From positions 7,300 to 39,299 of the forward strand of contig NZ_PQWO01000032.1 of assembly GCF_003231495.1 (NCBI RefSeq): a DNA stretch of 32,000 nt, given 5' to 3'. The notes under the pieces are model-generated. The model was given only the letters and a program-made list of their open reading frames with translations. It searched no databases and had not been told where the DNA came from. This DNA is from Acaryochloris thomasi RCC1774 (GTDB lineage: Bacteria; Cyanobacteriota; Cyanobacteriia; Thermosynechococcales; Thermosynechococcaceae). Numbering within the stretch: the stretch's first letter is position 1; the number at the start of each line of letters is the position of its first letter. The position numbers were made by a program, and so were the translations under genes. This document shows, piece after piece, positions 1,842-30,545 of this stretch.

Positions 1842-2151
1842 TTTCTTCGGCATAGCATCAAGGCGATTGTTGGGTCTCGTTGAGCAAATGGCTGATGAGT
1901 CCAGTGAATCTGCTGTGGCTATTCTAAGGTCGCCAGACTTGCGAGATCGCCTTGTTTCTTCTGACGATGGCGTGGTTTTGGAGACCCAGATTAGGCCGGA
2001 TGGCATTCATCGGACTGTACTTGGTTCCGATAAGAATTTTTTCGCGAATATTGCCTCCGGTCCTGGTCGCAACACCTTCGATGGGATCGTGGCTGGTGCA
2101 TTGAGGTTGGTAAGTGAGAGCGATGGAGAAGGAGTGCGACCATGCAGATAG
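1834..2151 (+). CDS. Hypothetical protein (105 aa)
   Basis: ORF track gives 1672..2151. ATG 1834 sits in an overlap with the upstream stop and follows AAGGGGA. Its 3' end overlaps the ATG at 2142. Confidence 0.5.
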   Translation: MSDFFGIASRRLLGLVEQMADESSESAVAILRSPDLRDRLVSSDDGVVLETQIRPDGIHRTVLGSDKNFFANIASGPGRNTFDGIVAGALRLVSESDGEGVRPCR

Positions 2152-3674: not shown

Positions 3675-3727
3675 GAACCATGTATTGAGATATTTGTGTC
3701 AACAACAAGTTTGGAGAATGTGAACGT

Positions 3728-4345
3728 ATGCAATCAACTAATGCCAAAGCCTCTACGCCAGTTGACGAGATCCTTCTGCCAGCTCAGGCTGCGGCGTTCC
3801 TGGGTGTGACGGAGGAGCAGTTGCACAATGCTGTGTGCCAGGGTTATCTACCTGGGGCTTGCATTGATGGTCAGTGGCGGTTTAGCAAGCGCGGGCTGAG
3901 TAAGTTCTGCTGGCAAAGAAACAATCACAACGGTTCCGCGCCCTGGCTTGAGAACTCCTGTGGTCCCTACTGGTTGGGCGATTGGGCTGAACAAAAGGCA
4001 AAAGGTGTGATCGAGGCTTATGAGGCAGGGGAAAGATACTTCCCTGGACTCTCCATAAAAGGTGGACGTTTTGATGGTCAGGATCTTAGTGGTATTGATT
4101 TTTGGGAGTCCGGCTTGAAGGGTGCAAGCTTTTCTGGATGTATTCTCAAGCAGGCCATTTTTGTTGGTGCGGATCTTACCTCAGCCGTATTCAGGAATGC
4201 AGATCTATCCGATGCAAACCTTGAGGGAGCTGTGGTTGAGGATGCTGACTTCAGTGGAGCTATCCTGAATCGGACTAACTTTGCGGTCAGCTTGATGAGT
4301 GGAGCAAAGCTAGATGGAGTCAGTATCAGCATGGTCTCCTTCTGA
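3728..4345 (+). CDS. HTH (excisionase/MerR-like) fused to a pentapeptide-repeat domain
   Basis: The N-terminus LLPAQAAAFLGVTEEQLHNAVCQGYLPGACIDGQWRFSKRGL resembles excisionase-type HTH domains. The C-terminus has GQDLSGIDFWESGLKGASFSG...ADLSDANLEGAVVEDADFSGAIL repeats. Confidence 0.8.
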   Translation: MQSTNAKASTPVDEILLPAQAAAFLGVTEEQLHNAVCQGYLPGACIDGQWRFSKRGLSKFCWQRNNHNGSAPWLENSCGPYWLGDWAEQKAKGVIEAYEAGERYFPGLSIKGGRFDGQDLSGIDFWESGLKGASFSGCILKQAIFVGADLTSAVFRNADLSDANLEGAVVEDADFSGAILNRTNFAVSLMSGAKLDGVSISMVSF

Positions 4346-4417
4346 CGGTTCGACTCTTGTGAGCAACAGTATTCACCCCGGTTCATTTTCGTTCTTTGTG
4401 TCTGGAACTGAGTTTAT

Positions 4418-5089
4418 TTGTGTAATGTAGTTGGAGCATGGCAGCTAGTGGAGTTAATCGACAGAAGCATTGCTGTGTCAGGGTCGAGTGAGATAAACCT
4501 TGAAGATGCTATATCCCTAATTAGTCTGGACAAAGAGCATATCCTCTCTGATGTAGGTAGGGGGAGGATAAAGGCAACTCGTGTGAATGGTGAATGGATG
4601 TTCGATCGTCAGGATTTATGTGTCTATCAGTACTACTACTATCCAGATTGTGATCAGTTAGAGCCATCAACTCTCTCTTTCCCGACGCCTTTGACCCCGG
4701 AGTCTGTATGGCGTGAGTACCAGCGAGGAGCGAGAGATTTCTCTTGCAGAGCAGTGAGCAACAATGCTGATTTTTCGTGTAAGTCATTGCCAGAAATTGA
4801 CTTTAATTATTCAAAGCTTGCGGGTGTTAACTTTGAAGGCTCAGACCTGAGGCAAGCCAACTTTCGCGATGCCAATATGTTTAGGGTCAACATGAGAAAT
4901 ACAAAGCTGGCTGGGGCTAGCTTTGAGGGCGCTGAACTGCGAATCGTAGACTTCTCTGGTGCAGACCTAACCAATGTTAATTTCGGTGGTTCAAAAATCG
5001 GAAAGATTCAGCTCCAAGACGCAATCATTCGGAACACCCAGTTTTTCGAGGGAATTCTGTTGACAACAGTAAAGCCAGATTATCGGTAG
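4418..5089 (+). CDS. Second HTH plus pentapeptide-repeat protein, a paralogue of 3728..4345
   Basis: ISLISLDKEHILSDVGRGRIKATRVNGEWMFDRQDL parallels the HTH segment of the neighbouring protein. The C-terminus has VNFEGSDLRQANFRDANMFRVNMRNTKLAGASFEGAELRIVDFSGADLTNVNF repeats. The start is uncertain (TTG 4418 or GTG 4448). Confidence 0.75.
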   Translation: MCNVVGAWQLVELIDRSIAVSGSSEINLEDAISLISLDKEHILSDVGRGRIKATRVNGEWMFDRQDLCVYQYYYYPDCDQLEPSTLSFPTPLTPESVWREYQRGARDFSCRAVSNNADFSCKSLPEIDFNYSKLAGVNFEGSDLRQANFRDANMFRVNMRNTKLAGASFEGAELRIVDFSGADLTNVNFGGSKIGKIQLQDAIIRNTQFFEGILLTTVKPDYR

Positions 5090-5109
5090 ATCGGTAGAGA
5101 GGAAATTCG

Positions 5110-5493
5110 ATGATTCAAGTTCCATCAGTAGAGCGGCAGATACCTCGGTACTGGTCTTCCAGTAAGCCAAAGTACCCTCTCCATGTGAGAACGGTGACTA
5201 TAACAGGGCACAGTGGTTTCATAACGGGCGTGGAGCAGTGTTTCTCAAGTGAGGGGATTGTATGGCGATACCAAATAACTTCCATTGAAGGCAGCGAAGT
5301 CATTGTTTGGGATGACAATGGAGAGAAGGTGATAGATATTGCCCCAGATTCCAATCGTGATATCTACCAGCCCTCTTCAGAATTGGTAGCTCATCTCACG
5401 TCATTTGCCGATGAGCTTGAGCAACAAGAATTTAAGCGGGAACAGGAATCAGAACAAAAGGTTGATGAGGGTTTTGGTATTGATGATGACTGA
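5110..5493 (+). CDS. Hypothetical protein with an acidic C-terminus (127 aa)
   Basis: GAGAGGAAA precedes the ATG. It is the last gene of the plus-strand block. Confidence 0.6.
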   Translation: MIQVPSVERQIPRYWSSSKPKYPLHVRTVTITGHSGFITGVEQCFSSEGIVWRYQITSIEGSEVIVWDDNGEKVIDIAPDSNRDIYQPSSELVAHLTSFADELEQQEFKREQESEQKVDEGFGIDDD

Positions 5494-6478: not shown

Positions 6479-9400
6479 TCAATACTCAAACCCTTCCTCT
6501 TGCTCCATTTCATACTCATGAGCCGCAAGCTCCTTCTCCAGCCAGGGACTTTCCTGCGCCCATTCATCCAGTGTCGAATAGCTCAAGTCGCTCAACTGAT
6601 TACCCCGCGCCAGCCAGTCGTCGATCCCCAGCTTGCCCTGGTCATTCCCTGGCATCTCGGCCACCTCCACCTTGGCTCCCTGTTGCTCTAGCAGCCGACC
6701 GAACCGATGCATTGCGATGGCAACATTCCGTAGTGTCTTGGTCTTCTCCGGTGGATCTTTGTCGAAGCACAGCACCACCGTCCGGCTCTGCCAGTTGTAT
6801 TGCTTGAGATGTCCATCGAGATACCGCTGCTCATTGTCATCTTTGCTGTAGCCCCCATTGACGCCATTGAGAGCAATCGCATCAATACCCCTGGTATAGA
6901 TTGCAGCGCCCTTCTTGGCCCCTTCAGTAATCCAGACTTCCTTGGTTTCGTTCTTGATGTCATCGAGATCCTTGGCAAAGGCAAAGTGACTGCGGTGTGA
7001 GGGCAGGTTTTGTGACGCCTTTGGAATAGACTCGTACTTGCGTTCTTTCAGCTCTGGCTTGTAGTTTGCAGGCTTTTCCAGGTTCTGCACCTGACCATTT
7101 TTCAGGTAGATGGTGAAGCGATCCTTGTCCTTCTCCTCAGTGACGGGTGTATTAGGCTTGAGTTGCCCCCACGGTTCGCCATTGAACGGCCTGCCTTCAC
7201 ACCAGAGTCCGCCCGCTTCAAGATGCTCGTATCGAGCTAAGAACTTTTCTACCTGAGCTGTGGTGTATTGGGTGCCGTGGCCTGCGAATTGCCCCATCGC
7301 GTAGTTGAGTAAATGTTCCTTGGCCCCTGGCCCATCGAGAGACCAGAAATACTTCGCAGCCACTTGGGGATGGATTGATGAATCTTTGACCAGCTCCACC
7401 CACCGCTCTTTCTCGATGTAAGTGGGTCTCAGGTATTCCAGCGCTTGCAATCTCTGTGTTGTCCACACTCGTCCTGTCTTTTCTGTTGACTGCTGTGGAG
7501 CTTCGTTAGCTACTTGAGCTTCAGCCTCCAGCCTGTCCTTCTTCAGTACCGGCTTTTCAACTTGTGGCTGAGTCGGTGGCTGGGTGGGTTGCCTATCCTT
7601 CTTCAGTACTGGCTTCTCCACCACAGGTTTTGCCTTCTTCTGAGGTTTGGGTGTGACATCAATGCCCATATTCCGCATCTGCTCCGTTAATCTCTGCAGC
7701 TCCTCTCTCGACACCTCAGGATTGGACCTGAGTGTCTGAACGAGCAGAGCCAATCGCTGTACATCGGCCTGCTGCTCAATCCAGTTTTCAACGTGATCGC
7801 CTAGGCCCACAAAGACCTGCATGTGTTCGGCTATGGCATCCTGTTGCTGGGTCTCGTGAATCGCCTTAGCTAGCTCCTGCACCCCTTCAAGAGAAGGCTG
7901 CTGCCTCGTCATCTGCTCTAGGCTATGGCCCACATGGTTGAGCTTATCGGTGAGGCCCGACTCTAGCAGTGTCCCCACGTCGGCCTGCTGTTGAATTAGC
8001 TCAGCCAACTCAGCCATCTGTGGGTACTGCATCCACTGTTCCAACCTGCCGCTGACTTCAGTGATGACCTCAGCCACCTGCTCCATTGCTTGCTGTTTGG
8101 TGATGACCTCTGCCAACTGTTCGATGCCATGTTGTCCTCTGAGACGATCCATCACGCCCGAGAACTCAGCGGCCACCTCAGCAATGAGCTGTTGCTCCTG
8201 CCAGCCGTGTAATGCCTCCGCTAACTCCTGCACCTGTGGCCTGACGGTTGACGGTCCCGTGAACTCCCGAAGTAGCTCCATCACCTGAGCTTGATCGCCT
8301 GCAGCCATCGCCTCCACCATGCGCTGTTCGTTGGTCCACTGCCCCACAGCGTTAGTGATGTGATCTGCCACCCCTTTTGTGAGGCTCTGGTCAATCTGTA
8401 GCTGCAGAGCATCAAGCGTCTCTGAGATGAGGGGCAACGACTCAGCAAAGGTTTGTTCGATGTCACCTGAATGAATCACTTCAGCTAGTTCTTCTATACC
8501 CTCGAAAGTGATTCCTGATGGTCTTTGGTTCTCAACGACGCTAGCTAGCTCCTGCAGCTTTTCACCTAAGCCAGATTCAGCGATTACCTGCAGGTCCGCA
8601 TTCGTCTGAATCGCATCGGCGAGTTCAACGAGATTGTGATTCTGGCTTAGGTGCTGCAAGCGTTCTCCAAGTGCGGCACCCACCTCCAGCATGACCGCTT
8701 CAGCTTGGTTGTGTGAGATCGCATCTGCGAGTGAATCAATGGAGCTTGAGAGATCAGGTTGATGAACCTTCTCTTGAGCCAGCTCCAGTGATTTGTCGAT
8801 GGTCAGTCCTAACTTTTCTAGCGCCTGATTGATGCCCGGTAGCGTTTCCGCCAATACTTCCTGAGCATTAAAAGTATTGATGTCGTTGGCTAGTTCGTTG
8901 ATGGAGCGTTTGAGGGCTGCATCTGATTGGTCTCTAGAGACGTTGGCAGGCTCGCCGTATCCGGTAGATCGATCGTCAGTGATGAGCGACCCGTTAGCCC
9001 GTGCCGCTTCAACTCTCCCACTAAGTCTTGCAACTGCTCCATCCAGTCTTGATTGGTGCCCAGCATCGAGACGTTGTTGAGCTGCGCGTCGTTGATTTGG
9101 GTCATCAAAGCGTCGAGCCTTCCGTAAAGCTGCTTGATGCTCTGGGCTAGGTCGTCGTTCTTCTTGCCCTTCAGCGCTTCGCTCAGTGCTTCGGTGAACT
9201 CCATCAGATGCCCGTTGAGAACCACTGGCATTGTATTCATCGACTGATTGACCAATTGATGCACCTTCTTGTGTCTGGCTTCGTTGTTCTCGTTGAGCTG
9301 TTGATTGTGCTGGATCAAGAGCCGATTCTGTTGCTCGACTGACATCAACCGTCCGTTGGCTGTCTCCAACTGCCTGCTTATGGTTTGGTTCTGCTTCTCG

Positions 9401-10462
9401 ACTGCCGTCAGCCTCTCGCTCATGACTTGGTTCTGCTGCTTGATCTCGTTCACGAGTGTTAGTAGTTCTTCCATGATTGATGTCCTCTGGTTTTGTGGGT
9501 TGAACGGTTGAAGCCTTTTCTGCCGTAGTCCTTTCTATGCCCTGCTGTTCTTCACGCACAGGGATAGAGACCACGTTTTCTTGAACGATATGCAGCCTGG
9601 GATTTTGCAGGTCCACCCCCTGCGCTCTGTCGTGCCACTGCTGCTTTAATTTCTGGGGTTCTTCGAGTTCCTTGACGGGGCGGTTTTGCAGGCTAATGTG
9701 CTTTAGCTCTCGCCAGCCTGTAACGCCCTTGGCTTGGGCAATCGCTTCTATTTCCACGGTGCGCTGGGAGAAGGCCCGTAGCTGTTCTTTTGTATACCCA
9801 GTGATATCGAAGGTATCGTTTGGCTTCCAGACAATCCCGTAGCCAATCTGTTGTAGGTTGGCGGCGAGTTCATGTTGATACCGAACGCCTAAGTCACGTC
9901 GGCTATCTCGAAAGAAGCTTTCGTTCCGCAGTGCTCTCCATTTGCCATCACTGCAGTAGCTGGTGTTCATGATGATGGCGTGGGTATGGAGCTGCGGATC
10001 CATCTTGCGACTGGTGGCATGGGTGAAGGTGGCAATCGCTAACTTGCCGGTGATCTCCTTCTGGCGTTTACCTCCGGTGCGGATCTCAACGAGGGAGTGA
10101 TTCAGTTCAATTTCCTTGAGGACCGCATCAACGGCTTCTCGATGAGCCTTAATCACTCGCGTGTCATTCCAGACCAGTGCTTGCAGGCTAACTGACTTGG
10201 GCGCAGAGAACGTGAGGTCGTAACCTCCCCTGGTTTTATTCCCGGCATTGCTGACGCCGCGTAGTCTGACGCCGTTGGGCGCTCTGCCGTGGATGAACCT
10301 TCGGAAGTCTTCTGCCTCCACTGCACCCTCAAGGCAAACCTGCGCGGCAAGGTTTCCATACCAGCGTGACCCACAGGCATTTTCTTCCTGCGCGTAGTAG
10401 GAATCTTCTTGTTCGTAGTAGGAGGCTGCTGCCTCTGGTCTGACGTTGTGGGCGGTGAGCAT
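6479..10462 (-). CDS. MOBF (TrwC-type) relaxase fused to a helical repeat array and a Toprim-like C-terminal domain
   Basis: The N-terminus parallels R388 TrwC as I recall it: MLTAHNV, paired Tyr AASYYEQEDSYY, LTFSAPKSVS and the His triad FTHATSRKMDPQLHTHAIIMN (nt 9980-10021). The C-terminus EVWITEGAKKGAAIYTRGIDAIALNGVNGGY...VVLCFDKD...GIDDW resembles Toprim (DUF3854-type, from memory). No Walker A motif is recognisable. Confidence 0.9.
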   Translation of the reverse strand: MLTAHNVRPEAAASYYEQEDSYYAQEENACGSRWYGNLAAQVCLEGAVEAEDFRRFIHGRAPNGVRLRGVSNAGNKTRGGYDLTFSAPKSVSLQALVWNDTRVIKAHREAVDAVLKEIELNHSLVEIRTGGKRQKEITGKLAIATFTHATSRKMDPQLHTHAIIMNTSYCSDGKWRALRNESFFRDSRRDLGVRYQHELAANLQQIGYGIVWKPNDTFDITGYTKEQLRAFSQRTVEIEAIAQAKGVTGWRELKHISLQNRPVKELEEPQKLKQQWHDRAQGVDLQNPRLHIVQENVVSIPVREEQQGIERTTAEKASTVQPTKPEDINHGRTTNTRERDQAAEPSHEREADGSREAEPNHKQAVGDSQRTVDVSRATESALDPAQSTAQREQRSQTQEGASIGQSVDEYNASGSQRASDGVHRSTERSAEGQEERRPSPEHQAALRKARRFDDPNQRRAAQQRLDAGHQSRLDGAVARLSGRVEAARANGSLITDDRSTGYGEPANVSRDQSDAALKRSINELANDINTFNAQEVLAETLPGINQALEKLGLTIDKSLELAQEKVHQPDLSSSIDSLADAISHNQAEAVMLEVGAALGERLQHLSQNHNLVELADAIQTNADLQVIAESGLGEKLQELASVVENQRPSGITFEGIEELAEVIHSGDIEQTFAESLPLISETLDALQLQIDQSLTKGVADHITNAVGQWTNEQRMVEAMAAGDQAQVMELLREFTGPSTVRPQVQELAEALHGWQEQQLIAEVAAEFSGVMDRLRGQHGIEQLAEVITKQQAMEQVAEVITEVSGRLEQWMQYPQMAELAELIQQQADVGTLLESGLTDKLNHVGHSLEQMTRQQPSLEGVQELAKAIHETQQQDAIAEHMQVFVGLGDHVENWIEQQADVQRLALLVQTLRSNPEVSREELQRLTEQMRNMGIDVTPKPQKKAKPVVEKPVLKKDRQPTQPPTQPQVEKPVLKKDRLEAEAQVANEAPQQSTEKTGRVWTTQRLQALEYLRPTYIEKERWVELVKDSSIHPQVAAKYFWSLDGPGAKEHLLNYAMGQFAGHGTQYTTAQVEKFLARYEHLEAGGLWCEGRPFNGEPWGQLKPNTPVTEEKDKDRFTIYLKNGQVQNLEKPANYKPELKERKYESIPKASQNLPSHRSHFAFAKDLDDIKNETKEVWITEGAKKGAAIYTRGIDAIALNGVNGGYSKDDNEQRYLDGHLKQYNWQSRTVVLCFDKDPPEKTKTLRNVAIAMHRFGRLLEQQGAKVEVAEMPGNDQGKLGIDDWLARGNQLSDLSYSTLDEWAQESPWLEKELAAHEYEMEQEEGFEY
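8890..9474 (-). CDS. Embedded +1-frame ORF (194 aa, coiled-coil-like) inside the relaxase linker
   Basis: ATG 9474 follows GAGGA (9487-9483) with 8-nt spacing. The product MEELLTLVNEIKQQNQVMSERLTAVEKQNQ... looks protein-like. Third codon positions are G/C-rich in this frame and A/T-skewed in the relaxase frame. Confidence 0.4.
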   Translation of the reverse strand: MEELLTLVNEIKQQNQVMSERLTAVEKQNQTISRQLETANGRLMSVEQQNRLLIQHNQQLNENNEARHKKVHQLVNQSMNTMPVVLNGHLMEFTEALSEALKGKKNDDLAQSIKQLYGRLDALMTQINDAQLNNVSMLGTNQDWMEQLQDLVGELKRHGLTGRSSLTIDLPDTASLPTSLETNQMQPSNAPSTN

Positions 10463-14838: not shown

Positions 14839-15099
14839 TTAAGCTTTCAAGTCAGTACCGTAGAGTCTTGTGATCGAGTAGAACTGGCGACTTAGCTCTT
14901 GAAAGCGGTTTGCAAGGTCGTCTTGCTCATCCCGTCCGCCATCAGCGATATCGAGATAGTTGTTCATGGCTGAGGCAAGGTCGCTAAGGTCGGCAACAAA
15001 AGCCTTGGTATCGGCCTCAATCTCCATCGCCTGAAGCATCGCAACAGGATAGGACTGCTCAGGATGAAAGTTGACGATTGGCGTTAGAGTAGTAGTCAT
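14839..15099 (-). CDS. Hypothetical acidic protein (86 aa), first gene of operon A
   Basis: AAGGAA RBS present. It is preceded by a conserved leader and a consensus-like promoter. Confidence 0.6.
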   Translation of the reverse strand: MTTTLTPIVNFHPEQSYPVAMLQAMEIEADTKAFVADLSDLASAMNNYLDIADGGRDEQDDLANRFQELSRQFYSITRLYGTDLKA

Positions 15100-15129
15100 A
15101 AGTTATTCCTTGTTGGGTTTAACTGCATC

Positions 15130-15164
15130 GGCATCGCTTACTTCTTGGTCGGAGGGGCGATGCC
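15130..15164 (-). other. Conserved 5'-leader hairpin of operon A
   Basis: GGCATCGC (15130-15137) pairs with GCGATGCC (15157-15164). The leader is homologous in sequence to 28371-28406 ahead of operon B. Confidence 0.5.
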
Positions 15165-15186
15165 TTTGCTTTGTTTGTATATGAAT

Positions 15187-15238
15187 ATTATAAACTATCA
15201 GTTTATAGTTTGTCAATCATAAGCTTATGGTTTATGAT
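15187..15238. promoter_or_regulatory. Back-to-back divergent promoters with overlapping -35 boxes and palindromic operators
   Basis: Minus strand: TTGACA (15216-15211), 18 nt, TATAAT (15192-15187), with the palindrome TATAAAC-TATCA-GTTTATA (15189-15207) overlapping the -10 and covering most of the spacer. Plus strand: TTGTCA (15210-15215), 17 nt, TATGAT (15233-15238), with the palindrome CATAAGCTTATG (15218-15229) in the spacer. Confidence 0.7.
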
Positions 15239-15275
15239 AAGTTCACAGCTTAGAGTTTATAACTAAGGAGTAGAG

Positions 15276-15530
15276 ATGAAGCTAATTGGGATGAAGGTAA
15301 GAAAAGTAATTGATGTTGAAGTTCCTGGGTTGGGACTCCAAATCAAAGAGGCTAGGGAAAGAGACCCGCGTTCTCTGGCTAGTATCTGTCGAGAGATTGA
15401 TATGACACCTATGAATTGGTACAAGATTGAGGCAGAGGGCACTAAGGCTTTGCCTGAAGAAACGTTGCGAGATATTGAGAAGGTGCTTGGTGTCGATCTT
15501 GGGGTCAGCTTTGAAGTGGCTGCTGCTTAG
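15276..15530 (+). CDS. XRE/Cro-type HTH transcriptional regulator (84 aa)
   Basis: LGLQIKEARERDPRSLASICREIDMTPMNWYKIEAEGTKALPEETLRDIEKVLGVDLG fits the HTH_3 pattern. AAGGAG RBS present. It is divergent from operon A. Confidence 0.8.
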   Translation: MKLIGMKVRKVIDVEVPGLGLQIKEARERDPRSLASICREIDMTPMNWYKIEAEGTKALPEETLRDIEKVLGVDLGVSFEVAAA

Positions 15531-15603
15531 TCATCCTTTCGCTTCGGGAATTGAAAGAGTCTAGTTTTGAACATCATTTGTATAGATTGAGGAATCAAGG
15601 GAT

Positions 15604-15867
15604 ATGACGGCAGCAACACCAGACCGACTGGATCGCATAGAGGCGATGATTGAAAGCCTTGCGAATACGTCAGCGAACCTACTGCAGGCCACCAGTAACC
15701 AGGATGCCCGGATGACTCGGATTGAGCAGGCTCACGAATCTAGGCTTGAGAAGATTGAAACCTCTCTCCTGGGGCTGACTGAGATTGCTGGGATAATGGC
15801 GAAGGAGACTCGGCAGCTCAAGCGAACAATGGACTATTTGCTCAGTCATGATGGCGAAAGGAGCTAA
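15604..15867 (+). CDS. Small coiled-coil protein (87 aa)
   Basis: GAGGAA RBS present. It holds the same position after the regulator as 28724..28984 in module B, and both begin MTA(A/S)TP. Confidence 0.55.
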   Translation: MTAATPDRLDRIEAMIESLANTSANLLQATSNQDARMTRIEQAHESRLEKIETSLLGLTEIAGIMAKETRQLKRTMDYLLSHDGERS

Positions 15868-15963
15868 TACAGCTCTGGCTGCAGATTCCCTGTTGGTGGC
15901 AGGTACCCCACTATCTATGCAGCACCTGTGTTGCTGCATCATGACTTTGCCCCGAAAATACCT

Positions 15964-16000
15964 TTCGACAGCTTTTCGCACGTTTTGCAATAGATAGATA
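15964..16000 (+). promoter_or_regulatory. Copy 4 of the bipartite motif
   Basis: TTCGACAGCTTTTCGCACGTTTTGCAATAGATAGATA. TTGCAA is at 15985-15990, 34 nt before GTG 16025. Confidence 0.6.
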
Positions 16001-16024
16001 GCGCTCTACTTAGGTCTGTCCATT

Positions 16025-16372
16025 GTGAAACTGCCAAAACTGTTGCCATTCGGTGCAACCGTATTCCTGATCACCACTCGCACATCCTGGGCAGACAACA
16101 GCCTGGGTAGTTGCATCGTATCGGTGCTGTGTAGCGGGATCGCTTTCCTATATCTCGTATCAGCCTTTCAGCCCAAAGCTCTCTACTTCAATACCCGGTT
16201 TTTCGCGTTCTATTTCATCTCGCTAGCGTATCTGCTGGTGGAAGTTGCGATCGCACAATTTGATTCAGACCCCTATCAGGTGTTGTTTGCTGCCGCTGTC
16301 ACAGGGGTAGCGATGGTATCAGCGCTATTGGTTGAGCTGTTTTTCTTCATGAGGCAAAAGAAATGGATTTGA
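16025..16372 (+). CDS. Small integral membrane protein (115 aa)
   Basis: There are about four hydrophobic segments. The start is GTG with no clear RBS. Its stop overlaps the AAA+ gene start by 10 nt (ATGGATTTGA). Confidence 0.5.
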   Translation: MKLPKLLPFGATVFLITTRTSWADNSLGSCIVSVLCSGIAFLYLVSAFQPKALYFNTRFFAFYFISLAYLLVEVAIAQFDSDPYQVLFAAAVTGVAMVSALLVELFFFMRQKKWI

Positions 16373-17826
16373 TTAACAGACTGCAGCAGGGCTATAGCGT
16401 ATTGGCCCTAGAATCCCCCTTCAGTGAACGGATGCGAGTGCTGGCGGATTTAGAGCAATGGTCAGAGCAGCCGATCTACTTTTGGAGTCCTGGCTATTCC
16501 AAAGTGCTGCAGTACAAGAATAACCGTCTGGTCAGCATCGGACAGATAGATCGCTCAGGCAGCATCAATAGTCCTATGGATTTACTCAATGAGGCAGGGA
16601 TCTACTTACTCGAAGGGGGGCTAGATAAATTCAACCATTTTGTCTGGGTGGATCTGTACCACCGACTCAGGGAAGGCTATACCGTCATTGCCTTGGATCC
16701 TGCTCCAGAGCTGCACGATGATTTACGCGCCATCATTCCCCTAGTGATTGATGCAGTACCTGAATATCGGACTGTAGAGCTATGGCTGTGCGAATATCTC
16801 AATAGATCGCCGTCGCCGCGACTGGTAAGAGCATGTCTGGGCTTGCATCTTGGCGCACTAGAGCAAATATTGGATCGGGTGGACCACGGTGATGAAGATG
16901 CGATGGCCGAAGGCCGGTCGGAGACCATCGCAAATTACGTCATTGGTCAGAAAACCGCTCAGCTCAGCGCGGTCGGTCTAGAGTCGATGGGTCAGCCCGA
17001 TGTCGAGATTGGTGGCCTCGACCAACTCAAAGAAATGCTGCACAAAACCACCAAGCTGTTCAGCCCAGAGGCAAGAGAAGCGGGCCTCAACTATCCCAAA
17101 GGGCTTATTCTCTGGGGTCTCCCCGGTACAGGTAAATCTTTAACAACCAAGACCGCCGCGCATTTGTTGGGTATGCCGCTGCTGGCAACTGACTGGAGCC
17201 AGATTATAGACGACAACAATCCAGCCAAAGCAGCAGCTAACTTGAGAGCCATCATTCAAATTGCGGAAGTTCTCTCGCCCTGCGTCCTGGCCTGGGATGA
17301 CTTTGAGAAGATGCCCCTTGGCGCACTGCACGGCATTTTGCTCACCTGGATGCAGGAGCGGACTAAGCCTGTGTATATCATCAGCAGCGTCAACCGTCTT
17401 GAGAAGCTGCCGCCCGAGATGATCCGGGCCGGTCGCTTTGACCAGATCGTATTTGTCGATCTGCCGAAAGAAGGAGAGCGGCAGGAGATCATCGCGCTTC
17501 ACCTGGCGCGATACACCGAGAGTGTTGAGTTCTCAAAGCTGGACTGGCACAACCTAATTAGTGCCTTCCGCAACTGCACGGCGGCTGAAATAGCTGGTGC
17601 TGTCAAGCAAGCTGCTGAAGAAGCTTTTTGTCAGGATAGGGCGGGGCAGATCACCGTGCAGGATTTGGTGCATCAGCGCAGCTTGTTTGTGCCCTCGATG
17701 ATTCGAGATGAGGATAGTATGTTAGCCATCCGCAAGCTGGCGCACTTGGCTCGCCCTGCCAGCGGTCCCGACAACTCTCAATGGCGAGTACCGCCGAGCG
17801 AGATGTTTGAGTTTATGGAGGATTAA
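16363..17826 (+). CDS. AAA+ ATPase with an N-terminal domain, Ycf46-like in layout
   Basis: Walker A GLPGTGKS. Walker B region CVLAWDDFEK, with DD where AAA proteins usually have DE. Second region of homology SSVNRLEKLPPEMIRAGRFDQIVFVDLP. The resemblance to cyanobacterial Ycf46 is from memory. Confidence 0.8.
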   Translation: MDLINRLQQGYSVLALESPFSERMRVLADLEQWSEQPIYFWSPGYSKVLQYKNNRLVSIGQIDRSGSINSPMDLLNEAGIYLLEGGLDKFNHFVWVDLYHRLREGYTVIALDPAPELHDDLRAIIPLVIDAVPEYRTVELWLCEYLNRSPSPRLVRACLGLHLGALEQILDRVDHGDEDAMAEGRSETIANYVIGQKTAQLSAVGLESMGQPDVEIGGLDQLKEMLHKTTKLFSPEAREAGLNYPKGLILWGLPGTGKSLTTKTAAHLLGMPLLATDWSQIIDDNNPAKAAANLRAIIQIAEVLSPCVLAWDDFEKMPLGALHGILLTWMQERTKPVYIISSVNRLEKLPPEMIRAGRFDQIVFVDLPKEGERQEIIALHLARYTESVEFSKLDWHNLISAFRNCTAAEIAGAVKQAAEEAFCQDRAGQITVQDLVHQRSLFVPSMIRDEDSMLAIRKLAHLARPASGPDNSQWRVPPSEMFEFMED

Positions 17827-17857
17827 CAGGATTTTTGGCTTTTGCAATAGCTAGGTA
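17825..17857 (+). promoter_or_regulatory. Copy 5 of the bipartite motif (variant AACAGG...TTGCAATAGCTAGGTA)
   Basis: TTGCAA is at 17842-17847. The motif starts inside the stop codon context GATTAACAG of the AAA+ gene. Confidence 0.5.
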
Positions 17858-17904
17858 AGCGTTTGACAGGATTTTGGAATTTTTACTAATTGAGGAATTT
17901 CCCT

Positions 17905-18288
17905 ATGAGACCTGAAATGATTTTTTTGAGTGTCGCCATCATGTTTTCGGGTTACTTGGGTTTCCCGCCAGGCGTTTGGTGGGCCTGGACTGTATCTGTC
18001 TTTTCAACGTTCGCTGCGGCTGCGATCGTGTTGTTGTTGTTGCTTGCCGATAAGTCAAAGCTGATGGAGCACCCGCAGCCTGAAATCAGAGCAGCGGTAA
18101 TAGGTGTGATGACTTCAATTGCCCAAACAAACTACTGGTTTATTGGCATTGTGAATCTTGCCTTTGTTTTCGGTTTCACAGCTAAAGGCCGCATATGGCT
18201 TGCGATCGCCATCGCAATATCCACGTTTTCTATGTTTGTTTTGCGCGAGATTGTTTCACGGCAGCTCCAGAGTGCTGCCGTGGATTAA
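17905..18288 (+). CDS. Small integral membrane protein (127 aa)
   Basis: ORF track gives 17890..18288. ATG 17905 follows GAGGA with 8-nt spacing. It has four hydrophobic segments. Confidence 0.6.
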   Translation: MRPEMIFLSVAIMFSGYLGFPPGVWWAWTVSVFSTFAAAAIVLLLLLADKSKLMEHPQPEIRAAVIGVMTSIAQTNYWFIGIVNLAFVFGFTAKGRIWLAIAIAISTFSMFVLREIVSRQLQSAAVD

Positions 18289-18319
18289 CAGCTTTTTTGG
18301 CTTTTGCAATAGATAGCTA
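18287..18319 (+). promoter_or_regulatory. Copy 6 of the bipartite motif
   Basis: AACAGCTTTTTTGGCTTTTGCAATAGATAGCTA. TTGCAA is at 18304-18309. It again begins in a GATTAACAG stop context. Confidence 0.6.
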
Positions 18320-18355
18320 GGGGAACTCCCTAAAGCCGAACTCAATCCATAAGCT

Positions 18356-20509
18356 ATGAACCGATTTTTCTTCACCACCTTACTCCTCACCTCTGTTGGT
18401 CTAACGACCCCGCTATCTGCCTTGCGGGTGAATGCTCAGCAGTCTTCAGGTCTGCCCTTAACCATTGAGGGCGGTCACGGTACGAAAAAGACGATGACCG
18501 TCTCATTAGAGCAGAAGCCAACGAAGAACCTAGGCTTGAACTTGAAGGTCAAGGGTGCTGAAGGTGCCCAGGAAGGCTGGCTCTATGTCAACGGTCAGGT
18601 CGTTGCTCCGCTTTTCTCTTGGTACGCCAATCCATCCAACCGCAACCAGATTGCATCCGTTCGGCTGGTGACGCCTGGGGCAGTTTGGCGGGCCGGTCTC
18701 AACGATGTCACCTTTGTCGCCCGCAACAACAATACGTTTAAGGTACTCACCGCTAATACTTACGAAACCGAGCGTAAGACCCATTTCACAAACATAGCGA
18801 ATCGCAATCGAACATCAACGATCTCAGCCCGAAGGCCAGTCAGACGCAGCTCGTCCTACACCTTGACCCAAGCGCCGCAAGCGATCGCCACCGCATCGGT
18901 GGGCAGAAAGACACTGACGTTAACGGACTTGATCGCCACTGTTACCCAGCCTCACGACGTTCCTGCTCCGGGAGTTCCACAAAGTTTTGATTTCCAGCAA
19001 TACCCCAGACCTAGTGTTGCGTCACGGCCTGAGCGATTGGATCAGCCACTTCCAGCCGGTTCTGGCTACGTCAATACCTGGAATCATATCGATTCCCTGC
19101 AGAGGGATGCAGCCCCGAACGTCAAAGTAGAGATGGGCAGCATGTTCTTATCTTTCTTCAAGGATGGCAAGTGGCATACAACAGAGATGGGACCGCCGTG
19201 CCGTGCCTATACCTATGAATATCCAACGATAGGCACGGGTAAAGATACCGATGTTGCTGCTTGCGAGAACGGGGCTGCTTTTGCGGGGCTAGGTCTAAAG
19301 GGCTGGAATAAGCCAAATCGCCATACCCACGGCTGGGTTCAAAACGGCAGAGTTGGCGTGAATTCTGAAGATGTTGAGCACTTTATGGTTTGGGCCTCTG
19401 CTCGGACTCAACCGATTGACCCGGGTAAGCCTGCAAATCTTGATGGGCAGAACTACCAGTATGGGATTGGCGGGGATTACTTCAATTCTGATGAAGGTCG
19501 GGGTCGCAAGGCAGCGGTTCACTCCAGACGCCAGATCGTAGGCAGTCAATGGAAAACGCTGGTGGGTCACAACATGACGCCGCAAACCATCAAAACGATG
19601 TGCGCTCAGGGTAATTTGCCGTCAGAGCTGCCGCTGGTCGGTGGATGCAGCAGTTCTTCGGGGGCGTTTCGTGCCGGTACGAGCAGTACCCCGAATCCAT
19701 CGCCGAAATCCCTTGCTAAAGCCACGGGTCAAAGCTCTCGAACTCAGACGGCTTCAGTACCTTTCAAGCGCACAGGAACCGGAGTGCTGACGCTCACTCA
19801 ATTAAGAGATGCGGTGACTAAGCCCCACGAGCAAGCTCCGGCACCGACTGTCCCTAGCAGCTACTGCCAAGCCTATAACGGCAAACCAAGCACCCTCAAT
19901 CATCCCAGCAACTCAAGCTGTAAGAATGAATTTGGTGATGATCAGTTCAAAAAGTACCGAACGATAAACCCTTGGTTTGTGGCCTACAGCCGCACAAAAA
20001 CACCGGACACCATTGAAATGGGGGATATGTACATTTCAGTTCTCAAGCGGGGCGTGTGGACAACTCACAACTTTGGCCCACCGGGTCAGGCTTATTTATT
20101 TAAGACAGAATCCCTCAACAAGCGGGAGGCGAAAGATGTTGCCACCCTCGGTAACGGTGTCTCGAAGCTGGGATACGGGTTAGATAAATGGCAGAATCCT
20201 GCGCTCAGCGCCCACGGCTGGCCGGGTCCACATTGGGATATCGCGCTCAATGATGCTGAGCACATGATGGTGTGGGTCGATGCTAGAACCCAGAAGGAAG
20301 GCACTCATGCTGTCGGTGCCGGTCTGGACCTGCGGGACAATGTGCTCAAAACAGGTCTGCCAGCGGCCATCAGAACCCGCCAACGTTTCCTTGGTCCCCA
20401 GTGGACAACGATTGTGGGTCACAATATCCACCCTGACCAGCTCGCAACTATCTGTCAGAAGTATGGGTATCCCAGTGCCTTGAAGGTTGAGGGTTGTCCC
20501 CAGCAGTAG
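18356..20509 (+). CDS. Secreted protein (717 aa) with a signal peptide and an internally duplicated ~250-aa domain
   Basis: Signal-like N-terminus MNRFFFTTLLLTSVGLTTPLSALRVNAQQ. Two homologous halves share LTLT.L...VT.PH, EMG.M(F/Y).S..K.G.W.T...GPP..AY, HGW, EH.MVW..ARTQ and W.T.VGHN..P....T.C. Confidence 0.75.
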   Translation: MNRFFFTTLLLTSVGLTTPLSALRVNAQQSSGLPLTIEGGHGTKKTMTVSLEQKPTKNLGLNLKVKGAEGAQEGWLYVNGQVVAPLFSWYANPSNRNQIASVRLVTPGAVWRAGLNDVTFVARNNNTFKVLTANTYETERKTHFTNIANRNRTSTISARRPVRRSSSYTLTQAPQAIATASVGRKTLTLTDLIATVTQPHDVPAPGVPQSFDFQQYPRPSVASRPERLDQPLPAGSGYVNTWNHIDSLQRDAAPNVKVEMGSMFLSFFKDGKWHTTEMGPPCRAYTYEYPTIGTGKDTDVAACENGAAFAGLGLKGWNKPNRHTHGWVQNGRVGVNSEDVEHFMVWASARTQPIDPGKPANLDGQNYQYGIGGDYFNSDEGRGRKAAVHSRRQIVGSQWKTLVGHNMTPQTIKTMCAQGNLPSELPLVGGCSSSSGAFRAGTSSTPNPSPKSLAKATGQSSRTQTASVPFKRTGTGVLTLTQLRDAVTKPHEQAPAPTVPSSYCQAYNGKPSTLNHPSNSSCKNEFGDDQFKKYRTINPWFVAYSRTKTPDTIEMGDMYISVLKRGVWTTHNFGPPGQAYLFKTESLNKREAKDVATLGNGVSKLGYGLDKWQNPALSAHGWPGPHWDIALNDAEHMMVWVDARTQKEGTHAVGAGLDLRDNVLKTGLPAAIRTRQRFLGPQWTTIVGHNIHPDQLATICQKYGYPSALKVEGCPQQ

Positions 20510-20510
20510 T

Positions 20511-21698
20511 TCAGTCAATTTCCCAGCCGTCGTCTTCGACCTCGATCTCCGGGTCGATCTCTGAGTAGCGTTCTGGGAAAAGCTCCTGTTCATAGGACTC
20601 GAACATTCTGATATCTTCAGAGGTCACCGCATATTGAACTCTGTCGTTTGTCTCAGTGAAAATAACGCCCCGTTCATCTGTGGCTGAGATAGTGAGCTTA
20701 TCGTCTGAGAACTCAAGCACATAGTCGTCGTTAACCAGTCGATTGACTCCCTTGTCTTTGGCCTCTTCCCGATAGAAGTTTGCGACATCTGAGAAGGTTT
20801 CAATCGTGCTTTGATCTAGCTCATTGTCCTTATCGAGTGCTGGCTCTGGTGCTGGGTAAACCCACGGCTCGATTTCCCTGCCGCTTACCTGTGAGACCAG
20901 TCGTTCGAGTAATGTTGCCATCTGGAAGGGGCCAACGCCACCCGGTACCGGCGTCAAATGCTGGGGAATGTCGTAGGCAGAGCGACTGACATCACCGCGA
21001 GGTTTTCCTTCGCCGGGAATGAAGCCTGCATCGACGACTAGGCGGTGTTCGGGGATGATGTGTTGCTCATCCAAAAGCTCGGGTGTACCTGTGGCTGAAA
21101 CGACGATATTCGCTTTACGGGTTTGGGTTTCGTCATCTCCGATTTCGATTTCTATGGTGTCGATACCAGCTTCTTTGAGGAGTTTGACGACTCCTTCGCC
21201 CACGTAGCCGCCAGCGCCAACGACAGCTACGGTATCTCCTTCCTGAGCGAAGGATTCGACTAAGCGGTAAATTGTCTCAGAAGTAGCCGAGGTAGGGAAG
21301 TAGGGATTATCGCTGCGCATCCCATCGATGTCTTTCTCGAAAGAGATTTGCGGTAGTAGCTTCTTTAAGTCGTCAGGAATTGGATTCTGGACAATCAAAC
21401 CAACAGAGTTTGCATTGGCCTCTATCAATAGATTCCTAAAGACATCCGGCGTAGTGAGAGAATCAAGTATAGGTTGTTTAACTTGACAGCCAAGTGCTGA
21501 AAATGTTTTCGCTTTATGCTCTGTCGAAAATCGAGCGGCTTCGTATTTTGCAAGTTCAATGGGGTCTTGTTCTGTTTCAGGCGGTAGGAAGCGAATAATT
21601 GTTACCTGTTCCTGGTTGCAGATGTTTTGAAACTCAGCCAGCCTGGATTTAACTTGTTTGAGGATAGAACTACCGTTGACTTTAGATGTCACGGGCAA
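20511..21698 (-). CDS. FolD-like (methylene-THF dehydrogenase/cyclohydrolase fold) protein with a ~110-aa acidic C-terminal extension
   Basis: LTPVPGGVGPFQMATLLERLV matches the FolD signature TPVPGGVGPMT. DIDGM and VAVVGAGGYVGEGV match the DVDG and NAD(P)-binding segments. The start is TTG 21698 or GTG 21692. The canonical PCTP segment reads PTSA here. Confidence 0.7.
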   Translation of the reverse strand: MPVTSKVNGSSILKQVKSRLAEFQNICNQEQVTIIRFLPPETEQDPIELAKYEAARFSTEHKAKTFSALGCQVKQPILDSLTTPDVFRNLLIEANANSVGLIVQNPIPDDLKKLLPQISFEKDIDGMRSDNPYFPTSATSETIYRLVESFAQEGDTVAVVGAGGYVGEGVVKLLKEAGIDTIEIEIGDDETQTRKANIVVSATGTPELLDEQHIIPEHRLVVDAGFIPGEGKPRGDVSRSAYDIPQHLTPVPGGVGPFQMATLLERLVSQVSGREIEPWVYPAPEPALDKDNELDQSTIETFSDVANFYREEAKDKGVNRLVNDDYVLEFSDDKLTISATDERGVIFTETNDRVQYAVTSEDIRMFESYEQELFPERYSEIDPEIEVEDDGWEID

Positions 21699-22170
21699 GA
21701 ACTTCCAAAATATCTGCTACAGGAGAGAGTCTAATTTTGGTGTTCAGCTCTTCCACTTCATTGGGCCTGAGAACCCACCATTCAGCGCTCCAGGGTTCTA
21801 TATGCTCAGGTAGAGGCCACGGTAACGTAACCCGCAGCCATCGCTCTGGCGTGGTCTGGTTCTCGTAGGTATTGGCCTGTGAAAATCTTCCGTAGTGACA
21901 GATCCATGTCACCTTCTGAGTGTTCGCCTCATTTAAGTAGATAGGGTATTGTTCTCGGACGGCGAGGGCTAAAGCTTCAAAGTCGATTGAGACATCATGC
22001 TCCATCGATTTGTTGCTGTGCAGGCCAGAAGCAACAACAATGACTTCTTCTTTCTGTTCGTCCCTATAAATTCTCAAGAGACAGTGACACGAAGCATCTT
22101 CTTCCCGCCAGTGAAAGAGGGTCTCCACCACTGGCGCTAGCTTGTCTGTCTTGACGACTTGATTAACCAT
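21682..22170 (-). CDS. Hypothetical protein (162 aa)
   Basis: ORF track gives 21682..22344. ATG 22170 follows GGAGG with 7-nt spacing. It overlaps both neighbours (8 nt and 17 nt), suggesting translational coupling. Confidence 0.6.
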   Translation of the reverse strand: MVNQVVKTDKLAPVVETLFHWREEDASCHCLLRIYRDEQKEEVIVVASGLHSNKSMEHDVSIDFEALALAVREQYPIYLNEANTQKVTWICHYGRFSQANTYENQTTPERWLRVTLPWPLPEHIEPWSAEWWVLRPNEVEELNTKIRLSPVADILEVLARDI

Positions 22171-23332: not shown

Positions 23333-23497
23333 TCAAGCTTCAGGTTTTCCCCTCTCCTGTGCCCTCTCCTGCGCTGCCACAGCCCTCGCCTCAGCATTCC
23401 TCTGGTTCCACTGCTGTCGGGTTTCGTCGGGGTTGGTGGACTTGGGTGGTGCAAATGTTCGGTGGCTGTAGTTGCCTCTGCCTTCTTTAGCTTTCAT
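23333..23497 (-). CDS. Possible small basic protein (54 aa) coupled to the kinase stop
   Basis: ATG 23497 overlaps the kinase stop codon region (ATGAAAGCTAA). No family recognised. Confidence 0.3.
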   Translation of the reverse strand: MKAKEGRGNYSHRTFAPPKSTNPDETRQQWNQRNAEARAVAAQERAQERGKPEA

Positions 23498-24599
23498 GGT
23501 GTTCATTCGTAGGTTGTCTTGATGTGAAGGCTCTAACGGCACTGATTAAAAACAGTCCAATGAAGAGCCATTGAGAGGTATTCATTGCGGTTGAAGTGAT
23601 CTTTGAGAACCCAGGAATATCAAAGACATCTGATGTATTCAAAACTATTGGGCGCATGATGATTACTGTCCCTACACCGCAAGCCGCTGCTGCAGGGGTA
23701 GCAAATCTTGCGAGAGTGGTTTGCTCATCTTGTCTTGCGAGGGCGCTGATTTCCTCGTCCCGCGCTAATTGACTCTCCTCTTTCTTTGTGATGTCTGCAG
23801 GATCAGCCTCCTTAAGCGCTTGGAGTGCAGCATCTGCCGACTGAAAACGTCGTCCTAGAACATCATCGATCATCTTATCGAGGACATCTGCGAACTCTTC
23901 GCGGACTGGTTTCCCGGCCAGCTCAAGCCGCCACTGCAGAGCGCCGGTCATTGGGTCTGCTGCAATGCTCATTGGGCTGGTGCCAGTAAGCAGATGAATG
24001 CAAGTCATTCCCAGGCTATAGATATCACTAGCAAAGGTTGTTTTACCTCGCATCTGCTCAGTTGAGGCATAGCCCACTGAACCGATCATGGTGCCGGTTT
24101 TAGCTAGCACCGTCTCTGAAACTCGCTTTGCAGCTCCGAAGTCCACCAATACCAGCGCACCGTCGCTCTGTCGTCGAATGATGTTGGCGGGCTTGATATC
24201 GCGGTGAATGACCCCGCTGCCGTGCAAGTAGCGCAGTAGCGGCAAGATGCCCTTTAGTAGGCTGTCGATCTCCTCTTCAGTAAAAGTTTGACCTTTCTGG
24301 AGGCTTTGCTGCAGGCTTTCTCCAGCGATGTACTCTTGAACGATAAATAACCTGCTACCTTCCTCGAAGAAGTCGTAAAACTCGGGAATCTGGGGATGTG
24401 TGCCCACTTCTTTGAGTCGTTCGGCTTCTTGACGGAATAGCTGGGTGGCCTGCTCTGAAGCATTTTCCTGAGACGGCGCGAATTCTTTGATAACACAGCG
24501 CTTTCGGTTGCTGGACTCGGCCAGATACGTTTTTCCGAACCCGCCTTTGCCTAGCTCTCTGATGATTCGATAGTTGTTGAGCAAAATTGTTGAGTTCAT
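23487..24599 (-). CDS. Hanks-type Ser/Thr protein kinase with a C-terminal hydrophobic anchor (370 aa)
   Basis: LGKGGFGKTYLA (Gly loop), VIKEF (catalytic Lys), HRDIKPANII, DFGAAK and GSVGYASTEQ. ORF track gives 23487..24719. ATG 24599 lies 8 nt after the upstream stop. The C-terminus has the hydrophobic segments VGTVIIM and WLFIGLFLISAV. Confidence 0.85.
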   Translation of the reverse strand: MNSTILLNNYRIIRELGKGGFGKTYLAESSNRKRCVIKEFAPSQENASEQATQLFRQEAERLKEVGTHPQIPEFYDFFEEGSRLFIVQEYIAGESLQQSLQKGQTFTEEEIDSLLKGILPLLRYLHGSGVIHRDIKPANIIRRQSDGALVLVDFGAAKRVSETVLAKTGTMIGSVGYASTEQMRGKTTFASDIYSLGMTCIHLLTGTSPMSIAADPMTGALQWRLELAGKPVREEFADVLDKMIDDVLGRRFQSADAALQALKEADPADITKKEESQLARDEEISALARQDEQTTLARFATPAAAACGVGTVIIMRPIVLNTSDVFDIPGFSKITSTAMNTSQWLFIGLFLISAVRAFTSRQPTNEHHES

Positions 24600-24606
24600 G
24601 CTTTTT

Positions 24607-24903
24607 TTACTCGCTCTTTTGGGCTTGATGCTTCTTGACTTTTCCGGCCAGTGTCTTGAGTTGAGAGCGCAGCTCCTCAATACTTTGACACAGCCTTCGC
24701 TCCTCTCCTCGAAGCGCACTGAGAACAGTTGTCCGCGACATTTCCTTTACGGCTTTCCAGAGTAGTTCGTTGGCCTGCTGTGGCTTTGCTTGGGCGGCAT
24801 TTGTAAGCAAGCCAGAGATTAGGAGGCTTTGAGTTTCTGGCAGCAGCTCTAGATTGATATCAGCTTGCGTATGAGTAGCGGGGCTGTGCTTAATAGCCTG
24901 CAT
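24607..24903 (-). CDS. Hypothetical protein (98 aa) with a coiled-coil C-terminus
   Basis: ORF track gives 24607..24984. ATG 24903 gives a 14-nt overlap with the upstream gene. Confidence 0.45.
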   Translation of the reverse strand: MQAIKHSPATHTQADINLELLPETQSLLISGLLTNAAQAKPQQANELLWKAVKEMSRTTVLSALRGEERRLCQSIEELRSQLKTLAGKVKKHQAQKSE

Positions 24904-30481: not shown

Positions 30482-30545
30482 AGTTGCGATGGTCTCCGAC
30501 CGGCCTGCCTCCAGAGGAGGAGCTTCGCTAACGGCCATCGCAACT
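30482..30545. repeat. 11-bp perfect inverted repeat AGTTGCGATGG / CCATCGCAACT with a 42-nt loop
   Basis: Arms at 30482-30492 and 30535-30545. The loop contains a nested CCTCC-aga-GGAGG hairpin. The arm sequence resembles the junctions of the remnant array (AGTTGTGATCGCA at 29231, AGTTGCGATCTCA at 30956). Confidence 0.6.

Follow-up and report, generated by a model that had tools for sequence, protein, structure and literature searches.

Ycf46 is conserved across cyanobacteria and many plastids, and no mechanism has been established for this AAA protein. Besides Ycf46, two kinds of described systems come close to the locus studied here. One is IetAS/SgiAT, a two-part mobile-element module in which an AAA antitoxin is paired with an S8 protease toxin, found on pTiC58 and SGI1 (PMC10954446). 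The other comprises global regulons of plasmids, such as those formed by the KorB operators of IncP and by the ParB sites that recur across the IncC backbone (PMC10954446), in which one short motif is placed ahead of many backbone operons, including transfer genes. Here, we analyzed a four-gene region on the plus strand of a 32,000-nucleotide (nt) stretch of DNA from Acaryochloris thomasi RCC1774 (contig NZ_PQWO01000032.1, positions 7,300 to 39,299), referred to as the window. Profile searches of the window proteins detected several hallmarks of a cyanobacterial conjugative element, and, seen from the relaxase promoter region, the four genes lie on the side opposite the relaxase gene. The region contains a plasmid variant of Ycf46 whose gene is preceded by that of a small membrane protein (mem1) in every locus of its subclade and, wherever downstream DNA was available, is followed by the gene of an exported protein, which in the window carries two copies of an unannotated domain (domain X). 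A second membrane protein gene (mem2) was found in the window only. The features of the region are as follows.

16025-16372, plus strand: mem1, 115 amino acids (aa), overlapping the start of the ATPase gene
16363-17826, plus strand: AAA ATPase, 487 aa, N-domain at about residues 1 to 205
16906-16929, plus strand: 24-nt in-frame insertion (AEGRSETI) in the ATPase linker, not in the related locus L001
17905-18288, plus strand: mem2, 127 aa (start given as TTG 17890 by the open reading frame [ORF] lister)
18356-20509, plus strand: exported protein, 717 aa, signal peptide at residues 1 to 27
18443-18760, plus strand: carbohydrate-binding module (CBM)-like beta-sandwich, residues about 30 to 135
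18881-19648, plus strand: domain X copy 1, residues 176 to 431
19760-20506, plus strand: domain X copy 2, residues 469 to 717

The subclade consists of the window ATPase and its relatives at 86%, 75%, and 47% identity (4 clusters on 5 contigs besides the window), and no further members were found in the GTDB species representatives, JGI metagenomes, or IMG/VR. A look-up of encoding contigs held no record for the exact window ATPase. The mem1-ATPase pair was present in every subclade locus recovered, i.e., the window, L001, L005/L013, L006, and L012. The gene upstream of mem1 varied among these loci with the pair being kept, indicating that the pair moves as a unit. Along similar lines, the mem1 family was represented by only 4 clusters among 5.8 billion sequences, all of them (L001, L005/L013, L006, and L012) directly upstream of a subclade ATPase gene, which they overlapped or abutted, and no homologue outside the subclade loci was found among those 5.8 billion sequences. 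In the window, mem1 and the ATPase gene share 10 nt (16363-16372). Compared with its L001 homologue, mem1 was 98% identical across residues 28 to 115, and the ratio of nonsynonymous to synonymous divergence (dN/dS) was 0.04, a sign of strong purifying selection and, hence, of a real, constrained gene. The protein has three transmembrane segments (hydropathy script), a signal-like N terminus, and a basic C-terminal tail (RQKKWI), and residues E73, D80, and E104 are conserved. Given the strict co-occurrence, the overlap, and the strong constraint on mem1, we are fairly confident that mem1 and the ATPase would be found to work together. No family for mem1, mem2, or the exported protein was found in Pfam, NCBIfam, PADLOC, or PHROGs; mem1 is an unannotated family. 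The L001 homologue of mem1 is split over two frames near its N terminus (252-476 and 242-607), which may reflect a sequencing error instead of a pseudogene (the contig name indicates 2× coverage).

Downstream DNA was available for three loci (the window, L001, and L006), and in each of them the ATPase gene is followed by that of an exported-protein homologue. In L006, a homologue of window ORF 1324-1656 comes first, and mem1, the ATPase (47% identity), and the exported protein follow; these genes form one tight operon, with an intergenic gap of about 50 nt and with neither the motif described below nor mem2. Since mem1, the ATPase, and the exported protein stay together across divergent relatives, we tentatively read them as one module made of a membrane-tethered ATPase and an envelope-glycan-directed protein, which we consider possible but short of probable. 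The initial annotation had proposed a system of four genes, and its details (four codirectional genes, three motif copies, a 10-nt overlap, a DDFE Walker B, and an exported 717-aa protein) are all present in the sequence. The expected synteny was recovered for mem1-ATPase at all subclade loci and for the exported protein at 3/3, and it failed for mem2, which was absent from L001 and L006; a conserved system of four genes is thus not supported. In L007, the nearest outgroup, in which the ATPase is 42% identical and mem1 is absent, the ATPase gene lies directly downstream of a gene (563-1894) for a 443-aa protein that has a signal peptide and a C terminus rich in Cys; this protein was ruled out as a counterpart of the 717-aa protein, to which it is unrelated.

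The ATPase matched PF00004 over residues 248 to 366 (62.9 bits; cutoff, 21.2), which makes it a classical AAA protein, and its best solved relatives were the D2 domains of Cdc48/p97. The Ycf46-like layout that had been recognized by eye proved to reflect full-length homology. The window ATPase was 31% identical to P0106 (Q8DMN5 of Thermosynechococcus vestitus, named AAA domain-containing protein ycf46 in UniRef), with 91% query coverage and an E value of 4.6e-43, and N-domain columns were conserved between the two. Both consist of an N-domain plus a single classical AAA module with the same Walker A, sensor 1, and RxGRFD. Walker A (GLPGTGKS, residues 252 to 259) is intact, and sensor-1 N344 and the arginine fingers R355 and R358 were invariant in an alignment of 19 homologues, including Ycf46. 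However, the window ATPase differs from Ycf46 in its location on a mobile element, in the coupling of its gene to a membrane protein gene, and in Walker B, which is DD and not DE. The latter reads LAWDDFEK (308-316; D312 and D313), with Asp313 aligned to the Glu of Cdc48, p97, and Ycf46, and departs from the classical hhhhDE form with its catalytic Glu. The segment after Walker A, which had been called divergent, is degenerate at the position of pore loop 1, where the window ATPase has WSQIIDDNNPAKA versus GRLFGGLVGESE in Ycf46. WSQIIDDNNPAKA lines up with MWFGESE in Cdc48 and GLVGESE in Ycf46 and lacks the aromatic/hydrophobic-Gly threading motif, the GLVG pore loop of Ycf46 being replaced by DDNNPAK. 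In addition, 11 residues are deleted right after Walker B.

Records of the AAA_lid_3 family (PF17862) exist for the chromosomal Ycf46 group and not for the clade of the window ATPase. Together with the relaxase-bearing element and the DD Walker B, this led us to reject the idea, raised in the initial annotation, that the gene is a copy of housekeeping Ycf46. The other half of that idea, unrelated neighbors, does apply to members of the wider clade, which stand alone in the three plasmids inspected. This is a large cyanobacterial Ycf46-like clade, with full-length tblastn matches on dozens of plasmids from cyanobacteria. Having DD in Walker B is not peculiar to the window, being common to about 76 of the 118 closest scorable homologues; DE is found in remoter clade members and in chromosomal Ycf46. 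The DD-type proteins of pANACY.01, pOSC7112.01, and Nostoc p057_B resemble the window ATPase in their DDF(D/E)K, plasmid location, and 33 to 42% full-length identity, but they are about 520 to 545 aa long, lack the deletion, and have R--RFD. Moreover, they are encoded by single genes in the three loci inspected, whereas mem1 homologues were found in subclade loci only. The subclade itself is marked by the 11-residue deletion, the retained RxGRFD, and a pore loop 1 without an aromatic or hydrophobic-Gly motif. We found no study of plasmid-borne Ycf46-like proteins in the literature. The window ATPase is thus a new variant within a known, functionally obscure family.

Judging from these residues, the ATPase would keep nucleotide binding and ring assembly, with fast hydrolysis and threading being doubtful. 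The Asp in place of the catalytic Glu, the lack of a pore loop 1 motif, and the 11-residue deletion at pore loop 2 suggest that it is more likely a slow nucleotide-dependent switch or remodeller than a threading unfoldase. The hydropathy script found transmembrane segments in neither the ATPase nor the exported protein. We propose that mem1, translationally coupled to the ATPase as its obligate partner, probably docks the ATPase hexamer at the cytoplasmic face of the membrane.

The 24-nt insertion in the ATPase linker belongs, with its flanks, to a unit of 36 nt whose ends are palindromic (TGCGATGG...CCATCGCA). This unit was 97 to 100% identical to repeats on five Acaryochloris marina plasmids and 92% identical on a sixth, and a second, diverged copy of its insertion lies at 30488-30511 on the minus strand. 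The AEGRSETI insertion looks like a small mobile palindromic repeat, apparently tolerated in a coding region, and its sharing with A. marina plasmids is a hint at the lineage of the host.

The exported protein begins with a Sec signal peptide (MNRFFFTTLLLTSVGLTTPLSALRVNA|QQ, by inspection), and beyond what had been annotated, it contains an internal tandem duplication. The two copies of domain X, ca. 250 aa each, were 33% identical to each other (E value, 5e-40), and copy 2 was only 27% identical to its L001 counterpart. A word-indexed search retrieved one homologue of the protein (45% identity) and HMMER 53 remote ones among 1.84 billion representatives; no more relatives were found in IMG/VR. 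The first module, at residues about 30 to 135, is assigned as CBM-like on profile similarity to uncurated modules only, which occur, often repeated, in proteins with apiosidase-like catalytic/DUF5060, beta-helix, CBM60, or CBM9 domains; residues 1 to 175 matched no Pfam family, and the module belongs to no curated CBM family. Domain X has no Pfam family either. Elsewhere, it forms single-domain exported proteins in Acaryochloris thomasi and marine Actinomycetota metagenome-assembled genomes, and it is also fused to alkaline phosphatase, GDSL lipase, CBM60, dockerin, or Cys-rich modules. Domain X is a rare, unannotated exported domain family.

A model of the full-length 717-aa protein, built on a 2-sequence alignment, reached a predicted local distance difference test score (pLDDT) of only 31 and was replaced by a domain model based on 23 sequences. 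The resulting AlphaFold2 model of domain X copy 1 (pLDDT, 91.9; predicted template modeling score, 0.90) has a beta-rich fold. No counterpart was detected in the PDB, either by Foldseek (best query-normalized template modeling [TM] score, 0.24) or by a profile search of PDB sequences. In BFVD, the model resembled a domain that three predicted phage tail proteins (A0A8S5TWL1, A0A8S5T3V6, and A0A8S5NCN9) have in common, one of them being named SH3-domain protein; domain X superposes on them with query-normalized TM scores of 0.47 to 0.56 (E values, 4e-9 to 7e-5), but the identity is 12 to 17%, the phage structures are themselves predictions, and in the window the domain is present twice, joined to a CBM-like module within a cellular/plasmid exported protein. 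At the sequence level, domain X had no tblastn match in PLSDB and no match in 50,697 phage records. The family alignments contain conserved His, Asp, Tyr, and Trp positions, compatible with an extracytoplasmic ligand site, and an extracytoplasmic location would agree with the Cys pairs that are conserved in the closest relatives. The carbohydrate-active and extracellular companion domains, together with the fold resemblance, suggest an envelope or extracellular glycan as the most likely target, to be bound or cut by the exported protein.

The three motif copies that punctuate the region belong to a larger set distributed over the window. The motif consists of TYRACAG, 15 to 16 nt, and TTGCAATAGNTAG, and its copies are as follows.

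215, plus strand: ahead of the first plus-strand ORF
10513, minus strand: ahead of the relaxase gene
11420, plus strand: ahead of an 88-aa ORF
15964-15997, plus strand: copy 1 (TTCGACAG-N15-TTGCAATAGATAG), 28 nt upstream of mem1
17823-17854, plus strand: copy 2, starting within the ATPase stop codon
18285-18316, plus strand: copy 3, starting within the mem2 stop codon and followed after 40 nt by the exported-protein gene
25171-25146, minus strand: ahead of the kinase-carrying unit

The form ACAG-N12-20-GCAATAG occurred 7 times in the window versus 0.17 expected, a count reached in none of 100 shuffles. All seven copies had the orientation of the downstream gene, and 6/7 ended 23 to 51 nt before its start codon. 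Alignment of the copies showed conservation limited to ca. 35 nt with unrelated flanks, for which reason we rejected the motif as part of a longer mobile repeat. It was also rejected as a sigma-70-type promoter, as a consensus scan of 15000-21800 reported none at the three copies; TCGACA/TTAACA within the motif is -35-like by eye, and no TAnnnT follows 17 ± 1 nt downstream. A known RNA element was ruled out by the lack of any Rfam match in the window. A degenerate half-copy (TTTGACAGGATTTTGG...), containing a perfect TTGACA, lies at 17860-17897, 40 nt past copy 2 and upstream of mem2. From its distribution, we read the motif as a putative promoter-like or operator signal of the whole element and not of the module. 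Like the KorB and ParB sites, it stands ahead of many genes, but it is asymmetric, co-oriented with the gene, and nonpalindromic, and it is located at mosaic junctions. The proposal that a shared control signal defines a module had to be abandoned, since the motif also precedes the relaxase gene and others; rather, three copies in 4.5 kb indicate three transcription units (mem1-ATPase, mem2, and the exported-protein gene) and not one.

The second of these units is a different matter. The likely start of mem2 is ATG 17905, with GAGGAA 7 nt upstream. The protein has two broad hydrophobic regions (hydropathy script), read from the sequence as about four transmembrane helices, and its only family match was a subthreshold one to TraX (17.5 bits; cutoff, 25). 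No homologue was found in L001, L006, or PLSDB (tblastn), and in L001 the slot of mem2 is occupied by an unrelated 56-aa ORF in which two helices can be read. The unit is flanked by 35-nt direct motif repeats, each beginning in the preceding stop codon. The variable slot holds, in mem2, a cassette specific to this lineage, which in the proposed arrangement would be an add-on.

In the module reading, the third unit, the Sec-exported CBM-like sandwich with its two domain X copies, would bind or cut the glycan, and mem1, the ATPase, and this protein would together alter or read the surface of the element-carrying cell, with mating contact, exclusion, or interplay with phages as the purpose. The triad has not been described as a system, and the case for regarding it as one is thin. 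The strongest alternative, somewhat unlikely in our view, is that the genes are unrelated neighbors, with mem1-ATPase serving in plasmid maintenance or establishment, the exported protein being an independent accessory, and their adjacency reflecting a shared backbone. Several observations weigh against a single module, and some of them favor this alternative. The ATPase genes of pOSC7112.01, pANACY.01, and Nostoc p057_B are single genes among unrelated neighbors in the three plasmids inspected, including par and rep genes, a primosomal protein, an antitoxin, and defense-like genes, and two domain X loci elsewhere have no ATPase neighbor. A motif copy of its own precedes every unit in the window. 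The blastn comparison of the window with L001 gave an 85.7% block, which starts at 15958, 6 nt ahead of motif copy 1, and stops at the end of the ATPase gene (17819), and a separate 66% block from 18282, at motif copy 3, so that homology breaks exactly between the ATPase and exported-protein genes. Along the same lines, synonymous divergence from L001 was 0.26 to 0.53 for mem1-ATPase and saturated for the exported-protein gene, as it was for the FolD-like gene described below. These discordant divergences and separate blocks indicate units with different recent histories, and the motif copies sit at the mosaic junctions. Other points concern function. The Sec signal means that export needs no ATPase, the glycan reading draws on companion domains and fold resemblance with no catalytic signature, and we know of no biochemical function for Ycf46, domain X, or mem1. 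On the other hand, the triad is kept in L006 at 47% ATPase identity, with another upstream neighbor and in a tight operon, and the changes specific to the subclade ATPase (the deletion and the retained RxGRFD) go together with mem1. However, the triad is found in only two independent lineages (window/L001 and L006). For these reasons, i.e., the two lineages, the discordant divergence, and the separate motif copies, we consider the link of the exported protein to mem1-ATPase weaker than that between mem1 and the ATPase.

The segment 23001-25171, which carries the Ser/Thr kinase gene and a 125-aa ORF, is missing from the otherwise colinear L001 and starts with a motif copy. It looks like another motif-led, element-specific unit.

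An addiction or defense pair similar to IetAS/SgiAT, in which the ATPase would restrain a toxic exported effector to stabilize the element or abort phage infection, seems very doubtful. There is the precedent of an AAA antitoxin with an S8 protease toxin on pTiC58 and SGI1 (PMC10954446), the ATPase gene likewise comes before that of the effector, the C-terminal domain of the effector diverges fast, and a variable small membrane gene adjoins. The IetA models matched the ATPase weakly (PADLOC PDLC02196, 58 bits; NCBIfam NF042959, 49 bits), but the cutoff of NF042959 is 510, the CDC48, PAN, and FtsH models scored as high or higher, and the PADLOC score did not exceed those of generic AAA families. 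No S8 subtilisin-like protease adjoins the ATPase, the neighboring proteins having no protease family match in Pfam, NCBIfam, or PADLOC, and the partner matched no toxin family either. Unlike the toxins of IetAS/SgiAT, this partner is a Sec-exported nonprotease, which its signal takes out of the compartment of the ATPase, and there is an extra membrane protein.

Finally, an exclusion module, with mem1 and/or mem2 as inner-membrane entry exclusion, the exported protein as surface exclusion, and an incidental ATPase, is hardly credible: small polytopic membrane proteins on a conjugative element, the lineage specificity of mem2 (exclusion specificity determinants are often lineage specific), and the rapid divergence of the exported protein would suit it, and exclusion families (TraS, TraT, TrbK, and Eex) are poorly conserved, but we found no sequence relation to known exclusion proteins beyond the subthreshold TraX match, and mem1, nearly identical in L001 and strictly coupled to the ATPase, is unlike a specificity determinant.

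Returning to the module of mem1, ATPase, and exported protein, its most ambitious form would be an undescribed three-part system. In it, a membrane-tethered ATP switch would control, or be informed by, a phage-tail-like, glycan-directed surface protein governing mating contact, exclusion, or phage adsorption, and the motif would double as a recombination joint through which units such as mem2 and the kinase are exchanged. This version we regard as unlikely.

The remainder of the window contains the following genes of the element.

6479-10462, minus strand: TrwC-type relaxase fused to a C-terminal DUF3854, 1327 aa
13634-14494, minus strand: ArdC/M78 protein
23487-24719, minus strand: Ser/Thr kinase

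A DUF6876 protein is also encoded. The relaxase fusion accompanies mem1-ATPase in L012 as well (3100-5214), and its presence in both the window and L012 suggests a distinct family of cyanobacterial conjugative elements. Three pentapeptide-repeat proteins, one with an N-terminal HTH_17 domain, are encoded in succession on the plus strand (2142-5089), and L011, a phage- or plasmid-like contig with a domain X protein, also has a pentapeptide gene. Shortly upstream of the four genes, an XRE-type helix-turn-helix gene (15276-15530, within a regulatory region at 15187-15530) is preceded by two divergent sigma-70 promoters close to consensus, one on the minus strand (TTGACA-18-TATAAT) and the other on the plus strand (TTGTCA-17-TATGAT). 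Such a regulatory layout is switch-like, and the XRE protein is a candidate regulator of the element. On the other side, a FolD-like protein (methylene-THF dehydrogenase/cyclohydrolase; 20511-21698, minus strand) is encoded convergently with the exported protein, with a gap of 1 nt. It scored far under the family cutoffs, was 62% identical in L001, and has an extra C-terminal region of ca. 120 aa ending in an acidic stretch, an odd passenger on a conjugative element.

The value of this analysis today is a corrected annotation and three testable hypotheses. With its fixed membrane partner and its lack of plausible threading loops, the plasmid subclade offers a compact, genetically separable case for Ycf46-type function. 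That the motif is located at mosaic junctions hints at a way in which transcription units are swapped among these elements. The ligand of domain X, in turn, could reveal a surface structure targeted by both the phages and the conjugative elements of cyanobacteria.

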